Shown piece after piece: positions 25,094-34,224 of a stretch of DNA of 64,000 nt. The position numbers were made by a program, and so were the translations under genes. Position 1 is the stretch's first letter. Each line of letters begins with the position of its first letter. Under the pieces are notes generated by a model that was given only the letters and a program-made list of their open reading frames with translations, did no database searches and was not told where the DNA came from. The DNA lies in the NCBI RefSeq assembly GCF_058153355.1, contig NZ_CM177019.1; one strand, given 5' to 3'.

Positions 25094-26347
25094 TTACTTA
25101 TCTAATAAACATTGGTCCGATTGTGCTTTAAAATAAGCACAAAGCAATATTATGGTGACAAACACAGCAGTCGGAACCGGTTTAGAAAAGAGTATTACAT
25201 CACTTAGGCCTACTACCAGTAGTGAAAAAAGCAAGATTAAAATATAAGGTTCTTTAGCAGTTCTTAAGGCATATATGAATATTGCTGAAAAGGCTAAAAT
25301 TGTTAATACTACTCCAGGAATACCACGCGTTGATAACGTATCTATGAGATCGTTATGCAAATGAGAATCTACAAAGGGTAAAGCGCCACTTAATCTAGGC
25401 TCTTTCTCTTCTAGTTCATGTATTTTTTCCGCGCGTTTTTCCAGTGATTGTCCTATTGGAGAATATGTTTTTAAACCAACTTCATACATTGCCAGACGGG
25501 CACCGACTGAAGTTCTGGTGTTATCATGCGAATAATTAACTAAATCCCTATTTAAGTCATTCATTCTCGTAAGTAATGTATCTTTAAAAGAAAATACACC
25601 TGCTAATAATGCAATCGCAATAAAACAATATAACTTATAATTAATTCGCTTATTAATATAACTATCCATTACGATTAATAGTAACGCAAAGAATGGAAAC
25701 ACTAATATGGCTGCACGCGTTTCAGTTACTATAACAGCACATAAGCTAAGCATGAAGTTAATTGTATATAATGTTGTTTTATGTCTAAAGTCGGATTTTA
25801 AAATGAGAATTGATGCCAGTAAAGAAGGGAAAAGGATGATGTAGCCTGCTGTTGTAGCGTGGGAAGCTGATAATGCAACACGGTCGACGTTTAAATAGAA
25901 ATGTTGCCACATGGCATGCGCAAAAAAAAGTAACTGCGTTGCCAGGGATGCGAACAGAATTAGTTTCCCAAATTTTATTTTGGTTCTCATCTCATCTTTA
26001 GCAAAAAGAACTAAGAAAATAAAAGCACTACACAAGGCAATTTTTCCAGTTTCCATTGGGCCACGATATGCATTGGTATAAACCGAGCCTGAAACTTTAT
26101 AATGTGAATACCAGATGATATTAACGATACCCAAAAGACATAATGAGATGAAAATTAACAACGTAGGATTATTAGTTATTGTTTTTTTTGGTGTCGCTAG
26201 AAAATATAATGCAGATATAATTCCAGCTGCATGAAGAAACTTTGTTGCAACATCATCCCACAAAGACAAAGTCATTAAAGACAACATACATAATATGAGA
26301 GTTAAAGACTTGACACCAGAGTTAATTTCATTCCAACAAAACGACAT
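25094..26347 (-). CDS. waaL: O-antigen ligase (Wzy_C family), encoded at the end of the waaQ operon as in R1/R3/R4 core types
   Basis: 417 aa polytopic membrane protein; position distal in the minus-strand core operon. Confidence 0.8.
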   Translation of the reverse strand: MSFCWNEINSGVKSLTLILCMLSLMTLSLWDDVATKFLHAAGIISALYFLATPKKTITNNPTLLIFISLCLLGIVNIIWYSHYKVSGSVYTNAYRGPMETGKIALCSAFIFLVLFAKDEMRTKIKFGKLILFASLATQLLFFAHAMWQHFYLNVDRVALSASHATTAGYIILFPSLLASILILKSDFRHKTTLYTINFMLSLCAVIVTETRAAILVFPFFALLLIVMDSYINKRINYKLYCFIAIALLAGVFSFKDTLLTRMNDLNRDLVNYSHDNTRTSVGARLAMYEVGLKTYSPIGQSLEKRAEKIHELEEKEPRLSGALPFVDSHLHNDLIDTLSTRGIPGVVLTILAFSAIFIYALRTAKEPYILILLFSLLVVGLSDVILFSKPVPTAVFVTIILLCAYFKAQSDQCLLDK

Positions 26348-26392
26348 ATAATTTCAACCTATGCTACGAGGATGGGTTATTTAATGGAAGAC

Positions 26393-27376
26393 CTAACGTT
26401 TATTCTTTTTTCTATTTACCAGTCTTACCATCCTCCAGAGAATATAGTTTTTTGATGCTAATATTTTTGCTCGCCTCTTATCTCTCTTGCCAAGAAGATT
26501 ACAATCTTTCAATTCTTTTTCATTGCTTTCAACTAATTGATTTAATAATTCAAAATCGCCATTAAGTAGAACATTCCATAAATAACGAGTTTTATGATAA
26601 GTTCTATTTTTACTCAATAATGTATGAATTTCTTCTTTCCGGTTACCTTTGTATAACTGCATCACAGAAGAGTAGATTCTTTCGTGCGCAAATGACTCAT
26701 GTCGATAATGAGTGATGGTTCTACATGAGTTCATTAAGGAATTTTCTCTATAGTTATGCTTATACATATAATATGGAACCGCATACATATCGCATGTAAT
26801 TAGCAGTCGATAGATAAAATCCAGATCTTCTCCTAGTCTTAAATCTTCATCAAAAAAAAGATTATTATCTTCCAGGAGTTGTTTTCTTATAAACAAGCAC
26901 CCTATATGGAATCTGACCTTTTTATAAAAAAAGTCGAAAAGTAAAGACCCTTCATTAAACTCTGTATTTATAGGTGAGTAAGTAACACCATTTTTTATAT
27001 GATGGCCATAAAGCCCACAATAAATCGCATCCCCTCCCGTCTCATGTTGTCTGGAATACATCTTCAGCAGATAGTTAGGATCTATCTCATCATCATCATC
27101 CATAAAACATATAAACTGTCCTTGCGCCTTGCGGATACCTGTATTCCTGGCAGACGAAACACCGCCATTTTCTTTATTGATAATAATTAATTGCGAGTGG
27201 GTTAACCCATACTCTCTCAAAACGTTTGATGTGTTATCTTTAGAACCATCATTAACAATAACAATTTCAAAATTTGGGTAAGTTTGTTTTTCTAATTTCG
27301 TTAGAGTTTCAGTAATGTAATCAGATGAATTATACGTCGGTATTATTATGGATACTAAAGGGTAATCATTGCTCAT
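26393..27376 (-). CDS. waaV: Family-2 glycosyltransferase of LPS outer core (WaaV-like)
   Basis: 327 aa; GT2 motifs SIIIPTYNSSDYI…IVIVNDGSKDNT…DDDD; symbol assigned by position in an R1-type gene order. Confidence 0.6.
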   Translation of the reverse strand: MSNDYPLVSIIIPTYNSSDYITETLTKLEKQTYPNFEIVIVNDGSKDNTSNVLREYGLTHSQLIIINKENGGVSSARNTGIRKAQGQFICFMDDDDEIDPNYLLKMYSRQHETGGDAIYCGLYGHHIKNGVTYSPINTEFNEGSLLFDFFYKKVRFHIGCLFIRKQLLEDNNLFFDEDLRLGEDLDFIYRLLITCDMYAVPYYMYKHNYRENSLMNSCRTITHYRHESFAHERIYSSVMQLYKGNRKEEIHTLLSKNRTYHKTRYLWNVLLNGDFELLNQLVESNEKELKDCNLLGKRDKRRAKILASKNYILWRMVRLVNRKKNKR

Positions 27377-32052: not shown

Positions 32053-33169
32053 CCAGACCACCCGTTATGATATCCGCCGCTTTCTCTGGCAGACTGTATA
32101 AATCTTGTGTATCAGCATAATGTCGCGCATTTTCCGCCCAGGCCTGGCGCAATGAAGATTGCGTTAACGCTTTGCGTAAAATCTCATTCAATGTTTCCTG
32201 GCGGAATGGCTCAACAATAGCCTCGCCGCAATTGGCGTCAACAATATAATGCGCATAGCCACAAACGGCTGTTGTTAGTACCGGTAATCCTGCAGTAATC
32301 GCTTCCAGCAGCACAATTCCCGCCGCTTCCTGGTAGGCAGGATGCAGTAATAAATCCGCCGCCGCCATTAATTCCGAGACATCGTTGCGCCCCGAGAAGA
32401 AGTGAACATTACTGCGCACGCCGCGTTTTTCTGCCAGCGCCTCAAATTTTCGCGGTTTATCCTGCCCAACAACATATAGCAATGTGTTGTGGCGCAGCGA
32501 ATCCGGTAATGAAGCAAGTGCTTCAATGGAACGATCGACACCTTTACGCGTGAAGTCTGAACCGACCTGCAACAATAAATATTGTTGTTCTGTTATTCCA
32601 TTTTTCTTACGAAAGCTTTCACGGCTATTGGCTGGCTGCTGGCTATATTTACGGTCAGGATAAATCCCCGGAGGCAAAATATGAAAACGCTCCGCTTCAG
32701 TCTGATAATGTTTCTGGAAATCGGCGATTTGCTTGTCCGTCAGCATCAGCAACTGTGTCGGCTTGCCCTGTTCAAAGGTTGCCCGCTCAAAGGCGGCATA
32801 ATGGCGATAACGTGACGTCAAGCGATAGAAAAAGCCTTTCTCCTGCGCCACTTTCTCGGCATAACAAACATCAGCGGCATAATAAACGTCCAGCCCTGGC
32901 ATTTTGTTGAATCCAACGACTCTATCGACCGGATGCTCGCGTAAGTGTTTTTGCACCCAGGCAAAATACTCCGCGTTACGCCCGTGATTGGTATGCGACT
33001 TAACCGGCACTTTGATCAGTTCAAACACATCAGGGCATTCGCCTTCCCATGACTGGGCATAAACCCGAACATGATGCCCTCGGGCCGCAACTGTCTGAGC
33101 AATACGCATAAAATCGCGTTGCAAACCGCCAAAGGGAAAATATTTATATAAACAGAAAGCAACGATCAT
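32045..33169 (-). CDS. waaG: LPS glucosyltransferase I (GT4)
   Basis: 374 aa; [25 protein letters not shown]. Confidence 0.9.
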
Positions 33170-34224
33170 AACGACGTACCTGTCGTGGAGGATGGCAATA
33201 ATTTATCAACAGCAGCAATGACATCTGCCGCCGGAATAACCGAAAGATACATCTCATTTCGGTCACGCTGATCGCGTGTTGGCATTTCCCGGTAATCTCC
33301 CGCCCAGAATTGAATCATGTTATTTGACCAGGGACGCCAGAAAATATGGTCTGTTGCACCAAACAGCGATATCAGCGGCGTATTAACTGCAGCGGCAATG
33401 TGCGCCGGTGCGGAATCAACGCCAATAAACAGCTGCGCATGATCGATTAACGCACCAAGTTCCGGGAAGGTTACCTTTCCGGCCAACGCCGTTACTGGTG
33501 GCGTCTGGCATCCCTGGGCAATTTCATTGACGCAGGCCAGATCGTCTTTATCCGGGCCGGACGTCAGAACGACTTCATAGCCACGTGTATGTAAGGCATC
33601 AATCACAGCGGAAAACTTAGCGTTGTCCCAGCATTTGAAGATTTGCCGCGCGGTAGGTTGGATAACCACATAATTTTGTCCAACACCTGCGTGATCCAGT
33701 TCGCGACGCATTCGTTTCCAGCTTGCAGGCGGGTAACTCATTGTTGTCTGCTTCACCAACGATTCGAGACCCAGTGGCGTCAGCACGGATAAGTTACTTT
33801 CCACCACATTTCCACCCTGCAACGGCACCAGATGGGTGAAGCTTTTACGCCAAAAAGCAGACTGCCGATGATGATAATCCTGGGAAATTTTCACACGGGC
33901 ATTTAATAAGCGAACCAGTATAGCAACCATCCATTGATCGGTAAGATTGACGATAAGGTCATACTTATTGGCACGTAATACCTTGATGAGATGAAAAAAG
34001 TTGGAAATTTTCTCTGAGGCTTTTGCTTTTTTATTTTTTATGCCGTAGAGCGCGTTAATCTCTGGATTTTCAGACAGAATCGGGATGGTATCCTGATAAA
34101 GCAGCACATCGATTTTTGCGTCAGGGTAATTTTTTTTCAGCGAACTAATGACGGGAGTAGTTAATAACATATCCCCATGAAAACGCATCTTAATGAGCAA
34201 AATTCTTCGAAATGGCTTATCCAC
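33166..34224 (-). CDS. waaQ: LPS heptosyltransferase III (GT9)
   Basis: 352 aa; first gene of the minus-strand core operon; GT9 fold. Confidence 0.85.
   Translation of the reverse strand: MDKPFRRILLIKMRFHGDMLLTTPVISSLKKNYPDAKIDVLLYQDTIPILSENPEINALYGIKNKKAKASEKISNFFHLIKVLRANKYDLIVNLTDQWMVAILVRLLNARVKISQDYHHRQSAFWRKSFTHLVPLQGGNVVESNLSVLTPLGLESLVKQTTMSYPPASWKRMRRELDHAGVGQNYVVIQPTARQIFKCWDNAKFSAVIDALHTRGYEVVLTSGPDKDDLACVNEIAQGCQTPPVTALAGKVTFPELGALIDHAQLFIGVDSAPAHIAAAVNTPLISLFGATDHIFWRPWSNNMIQFWAGDYREMPTRDQRDRNEMYLSVIPAADVIAAVDKLLPSSTTGTSL

Follow-up and report, generated by a model that had tools for sequence, protein, structure and literature searches.

An intact R1-type waa (rfa) lipopolysaccharide core locus in a 64 kb stretch of Escherichia DNA

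Genes and signals of the waaQ operon

The DNA that we analysed, a single stretch of 64,000 nucleotides (hereafter the window), carries on its minus strand, between positions 25094 and 34224, nine intact and closely spaced genes that the ORF map places in the order waaQ-G-P-O-T-Y-W-V-L (Table 1), with distances between neighbours of -8 to +78 bp. These nine consecutive ORFs coincide with the coordinates given by an earlier reading of the letters alone (the sequence-only reading), which had described a minus-strand operon waaQ-waaG-waaP-GT8-GT8-kinase-GT8-GT2-waaL; both the ORFs and the family matches agree with that description. The G+C content of the waa block is 0.32-0.39, compared with ~0.52 in its flanks, and we found no IS and no rearrangement within the operon. 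The nine-gene arrangement is not a chance pattern. The ORF map also bears out the earlier placement of waaL within the waaQ operon and not after waaC, as waaL is convergent with rfaC and does not lie 3' of it on the plus strand.

Table 1. Features of the waa locus in the window, with the activities predicted for the gene products.
Feature	Position	Strand	Details
rfaD(gmhD)-rfaF-rfaC operon	22052..25024	+	convergent, without waaL; genes at 22052-22984, 22994-24040 and 24044-25024; ORFs and collinear EC42405 annotation
R1-specific segment (rfaC tail, waaL, waaV, waaW 3' end)	24944..27529		R4 alignment ends at 24943 and restarts at 27530
Hairpin with perfect 15-bp stem	25050..25085		between convergent stop codons of rfaC and waaL; terminator-like scan
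waaL, R1-type O-antigen ligase	25094..26347	-	417 aa; last gene of the operon; Pfam Wzy_C, E 2e-17
waaV, GT2 beta1,3-glucosyltransferase, R1-defining	26393..27376	-	contains R1-F primer site 26776-26794
waaW, third GT8 transferase (alpha1,2-galactosyltransferase, adds GalII)	27455..28483	-	contains R1R4-R primer site 27595-27614
Segment common to R1 and R4 only (waaW-waaY-waaT-waaO)	27530..31254		locus alignments
waaY, heptose(II) kinase	28509..29201	-	230 aa; NCBIfam NF007684 RfaY, 401.4 bits (cut-off 248)
waaT, second GT8 transferase (GalI transferase of R1/R4)	29211..30206	-	Pfam GT8 plus GT8C
waaO, first GT8 transferase (second hexose of main chain)	30223..31239	-	338 aa; Pfam GT8 plus GT8C
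waaP, heptose(I) kinase	31255..32052	-	265 aa from ATG at 32052, as in annotated homologs
waaG, GT4 glucosyltransferase I (GlcI onto HepII)	32045..33169	-	374 aa; 4 bp overlap with waaQ
waaQ (rfaQ), heptosyltransferase III	33166..34224	-	352 aa; first gene of the operon; GTG start
JUMPstart element, waaQ leader	34274..34312	-	Rfam RF01707, 55.2 bits (gathering score 35), E 6e-10
waaA-coaD operon	34637..36401	+	divergent; third operon of the waa locus; waaA 34637-35914, coaD 35922-36401; ORFs and collinear EC42405 annotation

None of the nine proteins is truncated; their identity to the corresponding proteins is 98.7-100% in the complete genome EC42405 and 96.6-99.6% in E. coli B, and the R1 loci of both strains aligned with the window collinearly and without gaps. 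At the head of the operon, the waaQ product scored 713.5 bits against NCBIfam NF007742 RfaQ (cut-off 467), with 100% amino acid identity to EC42405 RfaQ, and the waaP product 479.6 bits against NF011703 RfaP (cut-off 170). The mechanical ORF of waaP (31255-32061, 268 aa) reaches a GTG at 32061; 265 aa were aligned in every comparison. In NCBIfam, WaaG matched nothing more specific than generic GT4 families; it was 98.7-99.5% identical to the annotated waaG product in four E. coli loci and 89.8% identical to K-12 WaaG.

As the sequence-only reading had counted, the operon encodes three family-8 transferases and one family-2 transferase; in Pfam, three of its proteins matched Glyco_transf_8 plus 8C (E 1e-71 to 3e-80). 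The first, WaaO, reached 610.8 bits with NF011718 (cut-off 461), is annotated as waaO in EC42405 and E. coli B, and was 51% identical to K-12 WaaO and 55% to its R3 homolog. The NCBIfam label of this family is '3-alpha-galactosyltransferase' whereas descriptions of the R1 core give a GlcI-GlcII-GalI main chain, and such scores do not give donor specificity. WaaT has the published length of 331 aa (PMC12548472). Its gene is intact in the window, unlike the E. coli B counterpart, which is interrupted by IS1; the gene that carries IS1 in E. coli B has been named waaT, in a strain described as R1 (PMC5221442).

The waaV product matched Pfam Glycos_transf_2 (E 4e-39), was 100% identical to its EC42405 homolog and has the published WaaV length of 327 aa (PMC12548472). 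NCBIfam lacks models specific for WaaV or WaaL: WaaL was unmatched in that collection and the GT2 protein reached only sub-threshold scores, with generic GT2 N-terminal domains, so that the core type could not be assigned from family HMMs alone. Database names of the GT2 and ligase relatives were equally generic ('glycosyltransferase family 2 protein' and 'O-antigen ligase family protein'), and none was named WaaV in the protein database or among the cluster members. The exact sequences of the five window proteins that were looked up (WaaV, WaaL and the three GT8 enzymes) were, in 5/5 cases, already public.

Upstream of waaQ, the operon carries an RfaH-type JUMPstart/ops 5' leader, in which the ops motif GGCGGTAGCGTG was read directly at 34274-34285, and its dependence on RfaH is predicted. 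Transcription of waaQGPOTYWVL would start upstream of 34312 and proceed as one long minus-strand operon, with the leader recruiting the antiterminator RfaH, and would stop at a hairpin that would serve the convergent rfaD-rfaF-rfaC operon as well. The RNA of that hairpin folds at -20.5 kcal/mol (z = -6.5), a stability that 0/200 shuffles equalled, and it is a probable bidirectional terminator, judged by fold and position. A weak internal terminator-like site (28403-28386) was within chance expectation (6 found, 8 expected), and the promoter scan was likewise at chance (35 found, 31.5 expected), so that no promoter is claimed. An IS621 copy is present near the waa locus.

Assignment of the core type

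The R1 label was anchored through E. coli B, the typing-primer scheme and RefSeq annotation, with F470 as the R1 prototype. The R1 core locus of F470 (GenBank AF019746) was reportedly described by Heinrichs et al. in 1998 (J Biol Chem 273:29497); E. coli B/BL21/C41 and E. coli C also have an R1 locus, as do many ExPEC strains. The window and the E. coli R1 locus agree in the order and orientation of all nine genes and share the pair of waaV (GT2) and R1-type waaL, the R1 typing amplicon and the JUMPstart leader. Apart from the IS1 of E. coli B, the window differs by ~3% allelic divergence from that strain in waaL and waaV and by a WaaW of 342 aa, against 341 aa published; none of this is a difference in kind. 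Proteins of Shigella sonnei, whose phase II reportedly has the R1 core chemotype (PMC7504096), fall in the 90%-identity clusters of the WaaV, WaaL and WaaW of the window.

Among the loci examined, only R1 and R4 had the Q-G-P-O-T-Y-W-V-L-type layout in which waaL closes the waaQ operon. WaaV has been described as the R1 determinant and WaaX as the R4 determinant (PMC3526765). The R4 locus (prototype F2513) resembles the window closely: it has the same operon layout, with waaL likewise last, it lacks htrL/yibB upstream of rfaD as the window does, and its waaQGPOTYW genes share 97-99% nucleotide identity with the window from position 27530 on, the proteins of an R4-typing strain being 98-100% (WaaO, WaaT, WaaY) and 93% (WaaW) identical. 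An R4 locus with this gene order would, however, encode WaaX, a beta-galactosyltransferase, together with an R4-type ligase. Where the window has its GT2 gene, the R4 locus encodes a GT25 protein that shows no BLASTP similarity to the GT2 protein; tblastn of R4 WaaX found no GT25/WaaX-like sequence anywhere in the 64 kb window; and WaaL, which was 96.6% identical to that of E. coli B and 100% to that of EC42405, was only 36.8% identical to R4 WaaL (and 30% to K-12 WaaL). The GT2 ORF, which the sequence-only reading had proposed to compare by BLAST, was 97.2% identical to the gene in the same position of E. coli B, with no BLASTP match in the R4, K-12 or R3 loci.

Core-type PCR, also proposed there, was run in silico with the typing primers of Trofimova et al. 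2025, tolerating up to 3 mismatches, and returned R1 only. R1-F and R1R4-R matched exactly and delimit a waaV-waaW product of 839 bp, 3 bp shorter than the published 842 bp, whereas the R2, R3, R4 and K-12 primers had no match in the window at up to 3 mismatches; the same primer set typed control loci correctly as R4, K-12 and R3. With no GT25/WaaX in the window, no R4-F site there even at 3 mismatches and a WaaL 37% identical to that of R4, the R4 type was rejected, and we give it almost no credence. The sequence-only reading had held that R4 could not be fully excluded from composition. Its remark that R4 shares the gene order and has another terminal transferase stands, but composition is not needed for the distinction, because that transferase belongs to another family (GT25, not GT2), and the case is now resolved as R1.

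The K-12 and R3 loci share with the window the waaQ-waaG-waaP operon head and the rfaD-F-C and waaA-coaD flanks, and identity to the window is 31-55% among the GT8 paralogs and WaaY. Unlike the window, K-12 MG1655 and an R3-typing strain have waaL behind waaC on the opposite (plus) strand, no GT2 gene, and htrL/yibB between kbl and rfaD; the K-12 locus has its own genes waaS, B, J, Z and U, and the last gene of the R3 locus is GlcNAc-transferase-like. When K-12- and R3-specific proteins were compared with the window by tblastn, only paralog-level matches to the GT8 proteins and WaaY were obtained. Both types were rejected, as waaL closes the minus-strand waaQ operon and the window lacks their primer sites and type-specific genes. 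The R2 type, whose layout was compared by literature only, was rejected on primers (waaK/waaZ sites missing).

The limits of the type-specific DNA follow from the alignments. Homology to non-R1 loci stops at 24942-24943, so that the sequence of rfaC depends on the core type over its final ~80 bp (from ~24944), and alignment with the window restarts at 27530 for R4, 31255 for R3 and 31359 for the K-12 type.

Mixed loci have been reported, among them R2/K-12 hybrids and ECOR46, which has both R1 and R4 waaL plus waaV and waaX (PMC13293308), and the present strain could likewise have further type-specific core genes elsewhere, as our view is limited to 64 kb of its genome. We regard this as very improbable: no second waaL and no waaX-, waaK-, waaU-, waaZ-, waaB- or waaS-like sequences were found in the window, which led us to reject an R1/R4 hybrid within these 64 kb, and the operon interior is free of IS and rearrangement. 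Automatic typing failed for 40/4,549 genomes (0.9%), of which hybrids are a subset (PMC13293308). Moreover, the R1-specific 2.6 kb block was single-copy and chromosomal in every one of the 1834 genomes that had it among 5426 complete E. coli genomes. This share (33.8%) agrees with a published R1 prevalence of 35.4% (PMC13293308).

The R1 arrangement waaQGPOTYWVL proposed by the sequence-only reading is thus supported by gene order, by the identity of the GT2 protein to that of E. coli B and by in silico PCR. The genotype and gene content are those of R1, and we conclude with high confidence that the waa (rfa) LPS core locus in the window is intact and of the canonical Escherichia coli R1 type.

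Predicted core structure

From this R1 gene set, the strain is predicted to make an R1 core, with a GlcI-GlcII-GalI-GalII main chain and beta-Glc on GlcII. WaaG would add GlcI onto HepII, WaaO the second hexose of the main chain (GlcII), WaaT GalI and WaaW GalII; WaaV, the GT2 protein with predicted beta1,3-glucosyltransferase activity, would attach a beta-linked glucose side branch to GlcII, and the R1-type WaaL would join O-antigen (or ECA) to this side-branch glucose. In the inner core, WaaP would phosphorylate HepI, WaaQ add HepIII and WaaY phosphorylate HepII. These transferase, kinase and ligase steps are established knowledge of the pathway. The ligation site of R1 is the side-branch beta-Glc (PMC7504096), and O-antigen is lost in waaV mutants (PMC12548472); loss of ligation after waaV deletion has been described in strain TK001.

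Both the sugar structure and its expression are what we infer from the genes, and an R1 genotype could express a core that departs from the canonical one through allelic differences in WaaW or WaaV, non-stoichiometric change (e.g. WaaH glucuronylation of HepIII) or poor expression. The waaL and waaV alleles lie ~3% from the E. coli B allele, WaaW is one residue longer, and waaH is present in the window at 16879-17913 (by annotation of its EC42405 homolog) with the IS621 copy 231 bp from its start codon. Nevertheless, none of the core enzymes is truncated, their non-synonymous divergence is low (pN 0.002-0.017), and the same allele family occurs at at least 99% identity in 387 complete genomes, which makes such a departure unlikely.

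Probable host lineage and meaning of the R1 assignment

The strain probably belongs to Escherichia cryptic clade I. Compared over 17.4 kb, the draft genome GCA_015332025.1 and the window show 2 mismatches. Relative to a sensu stricto R1 strain, synonymous divergence was 0.00-0.07 in waaL, V, W, Y and T, compared with 0.11-0.20 in flanking genes, and a 3.7 kb tract (24941-28634) had one mismatch to the clade I strain EC42405, compared with a 1.1% average. That synonymous divergence in the outer-core block lies far below that of the flanks points to recombinational exchange. We consider it an even chance that the window comes from a cryptic clade I strain and that homologous recombination recently exchanged the R1 outer-core cassette (about 24.9-31 kb) between this strain and E. 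coli sensu stricto.

The R1 locus is a correct but ordinary assignment, with nothing new to biology; its genes and enzymology were reportedly worked out in 1998, and R1 is the most frequent of the five known E. coli core types, at about 34-35% of complete genomes. Because the core type sets the pair of O-antigen ligase and acceptor, the phages that adsorb and the anti-core antibodies or vaccines that recognise a strain, the assignment is useful as annotation. The R1 core type is not discussed in the clade I paper (PMC10100065), and R1 in clade I is not among the published breakdown by phylogroups A-G. If the exchange with E. coli sensu stricto did occur, the R1 core type would be documented in clade I, and core type would move like a cassette across the subspecies boundary.

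Core type of the waa operon

The sequence-only reading had claimed an R1-type gene order for this LPS core operon and had left R4 open. Our ORF map placed nine minus-strand ORFs at exactly the coordinates of that reading, closely packed at intergenic distances of -8 to +78 bp, in a waa block whose G+C content is 0.32-0.39 vs about 0.52 in its flanks. RfaQ, RfaP and RfaY exceeded their curated NCBIfam cut-offs (713, 480 and 401 bits), the first GT8 protein matched the waaO/rfaI family (611 bits), and Pfam assigned GT8 plus GT8C domains to three of the operon proteins, GT2 to one and a Wzy_C O-antigen ligase domain to one. 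These families, together with the convergence of rfaD, rfaF and rfaC on waaL, bore out the order waaQ-G-P-GT8-GT8-waaY-GT8-GT2-waaL.

Coordinates of features in the window
Feature	Coordinates	Strand	Remark
YadA-like/EhaG adhesin gene	1 to ~6000		left end
waaH/yibD	16879-17913	-
IS621 copy	~18145-19556		IS110 family
IS621 transposase ORF	18397-19377	+
tdh	19603-20628	-
kbl-rfaD interval	21839-22051		htrL/yibB position
rfaD, rfaF, rfaC	22052-25024	+
Discordant block	24941-31000
Near-identical tract	24941-28634		one mismatch to EC42405
End of similarity, all non-R1 types	~24943		within last ~27 codons of rfaC
R1-specific segment	24944-27529
Hairpin	25050-25085		rfaC and waaL stop codons either side
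waa operon	25094-34224	-
waaL	25094-26347	-
waaV (GT2)	26393-27376	-
R1-F primer site	26776-26794		exact match, within waaV
waaV-waaW spacer	27377-27454
waaW (third GT8)	27455-28483	-
Similarity resumes, R4	27530		3' end of waaW
R1R4-R primer site	27595-27614		exact match, within waaW
waaQ-waaG-waaP	31255-34224	-
Similarity resumes, R3	31255
Similarity resumes, K-12 type	31359
JUMPstart	34274-34312	-

When the 9.1-kb waa block was compared by megablast with 5426 complete E. coli genomes, the matches fell into three coverage classes, and at least one locus of each class was fetched. The whole block was matched in the 100% class (1825 genomes at a coverage of at least 80%), to which EC42405 and E. 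coli B belong; the 73% class (HCM-27C-1) matched from query position 2443 on, and the 31-33% class, of R3 and K-12 type, matched in waaQGP only. The operon proteins of the window were 98.7-100% identical to those of EC42405 and 96.6-99.6% identical to those of E. coli B, in which the second GT8 gene is split by IS1. Because E. coli B has an R1-type core that is truncated through IS1 insertion in waaT (PMC5221442), the second GT8 gene is waaT and the full-length class is R1. The R4 locus of HCM-27C-1 has the same layout as the window, but its last two positions hold a 257-aa GT25 protein and a ligase that is 36.8% identical. As WaaV and WaaX are the published determinants of R1 and R4, respectively (PMC3526765), the 73% class, with its GT25 protein, shows the R4 pattern. 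In K-12 MG1655 and the R3-typing strain, by contrast, waaL lies on the plus strand after waaC, and the GT2 gene has no homolog there. The lengths of WaaV, WaaT and WaaW in the window (327, 331 and 342 aa) agree with those published (327, 331 and 341 aa; PMC12548472).

The core-type PCR typing that had been proposed as a check was run in silico with the nine primers of Trofimova et al. 2025 (PMC13293308), allowing up to 3 mismatches. Only the R1 primers matched, and their amplicon was 839 bp, vs 842 bp in E. coli B and 842 bp as published; the R2, R3, R4 and K-12 primers had no match in the window at up to 3 mismatches, and the R4, K-12 and R3 control loci were each typed correctly. Compared with E. 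coli B, the window has a shorter waaV-waaW spacer (78 vs 84 bp) and one more residue in WaaW (341 aa in that strain); these lengths and the amplicon size are a minor indel variant common to the window and EC42405. The R1 interpretation was therefore right, and R4 is excluded by the GT2 rather than GT25 protein, the divergent ligase and the unmatched R4 primer. As tblastn with all type-specific proteins of R4, K-12 and R3 found neither WaaX nor a second ligase in the whole 64 kb of the genome covered by our searches for extra core-type genes and hybrids, an ECOR46-like hybrid is likewise excluded within the window.

Several neighboring differences were also observed. The K-12 and R3 loci carry htrL/yibB between kbl and rfaD, the window and the examined R1 and R4 loci do not, and tblastn with HtrL found nothing in the window; presence of this gene seems to track core type among the loci examined. 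The waaQ-waaG-waaP genes of MG1655 (13154-16099 of its locus) have about 75% nucleotide identity to every other examined locus, and those of S10EC, which has the K-12 gene order, are 96% identical to the window.

Segment boundaries, probable exchange and probable lineage

Alignment breakpoints between core types were sharp. The R1-specific segment was found in 1834 of the 5426 genomes (33.8%), single-copy and chromosomal in all, in agreement with an R1 prevalence of 35.4% in a published survey (PMC13293308); EC42405 carries it at 100% identity, and its identity is 99% or more in 387 genomes.

The outer-core block was 98-99.9% identical to that of the sensu stricto R1 strain SCU-108, vs 94-97% in the flanks, and synonymous divergence from this strain was 0.00-0.07 for waaL, V, W, Y and T, vs 0.11-0.20 for flanking genes. 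Divergence from EC42405 averaged 1.1% over the locus, vs a single mismatch in the near-identical tract. The block is phylogenetically discordant with its flanks, and this low synonymous divergence and the tract point to an exchange of the core cassette by recombination, in tracts. Such exchange is in keeping with the general belief about the waa locus.

The housekeeping flanks (window positions 20000-25000 and 34225-64000) shared 98.3-98.5% identity with EC42405 but only 95.8-97% with a set of five diverse E. coli strains that have 97.9-99.3% identity among themselves. EC42405 is listed among cryptic clade I strains, with ANI >98.3% within clade I and >95.9% between clade I and E. coli sensu stricto (PMC10100065). 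Taken together, these values suggest that the window probably derives from an Escherichia cryptic clade I strain. The draft assembly GCA_015332025.1 had 2 mismatches to the window in 17,377 bases.

Outside the operon, the IS621 copy (~96% identical to annotated IS621) lies between waaH/yibD and tdh, a site where it is missing in EC42405 and SCU-108. Between slmA and pyrE, EC42405 has a gene for a 'reverse transcriptase family protein' (2231-3190 of its locus, corresponding to window position ~41200), which the window probably lacks, since its alignment to EC42405 is ~1.27 kb shorter there. Against other E. coli genomes, the large YadA-like/EhaG trimeric autotransporter adhesin gene aligned incompletely and at lower identity.

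Transcription signals and the predicted core

A JUMPstart element that includes the ops motif GGCGGTAGCGTG lies in the waaQ leader, 50 bp 5' of the GTG start of waaQ (55.2 bits vs a gathering score of 35). At the other end of the operon is a hairpin with a perfect 15-bp stem (-20.5 kcal/mol, z = -6.5). A promoter scan gave hits at chance level, and we claim no promoter. From established knowledge, RfaH-dependent antitermination would yield a single transcript across all nine waa genes.

The strain is predicted from its gene content to have the R1 chemotype. WaaG, WaaO, WaaT and WaaW would build the GlcI-GlcII-GalI-GalII main chain, and WaaP, WaaQ and WaaY would decorate the heptose region. WaaV would add the beta-Glc branch on GlcII, and to this beta-Glc the R1 WaaL would join O-antigen or ECA (PMC3526765, PMC7504096, PMC5221442, PMC12548472). 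NCBIfam names the WaaO family '3-alpha-galactosyltransferase', at odds with the R1 literature, which assigns Glc; the donor specificity of WaaO is putative.

Overall, the core gene cluster of the window is intact and of the standard R1 type, which public data already contain. Its assignment is no discovery; it is worth having as annotation.
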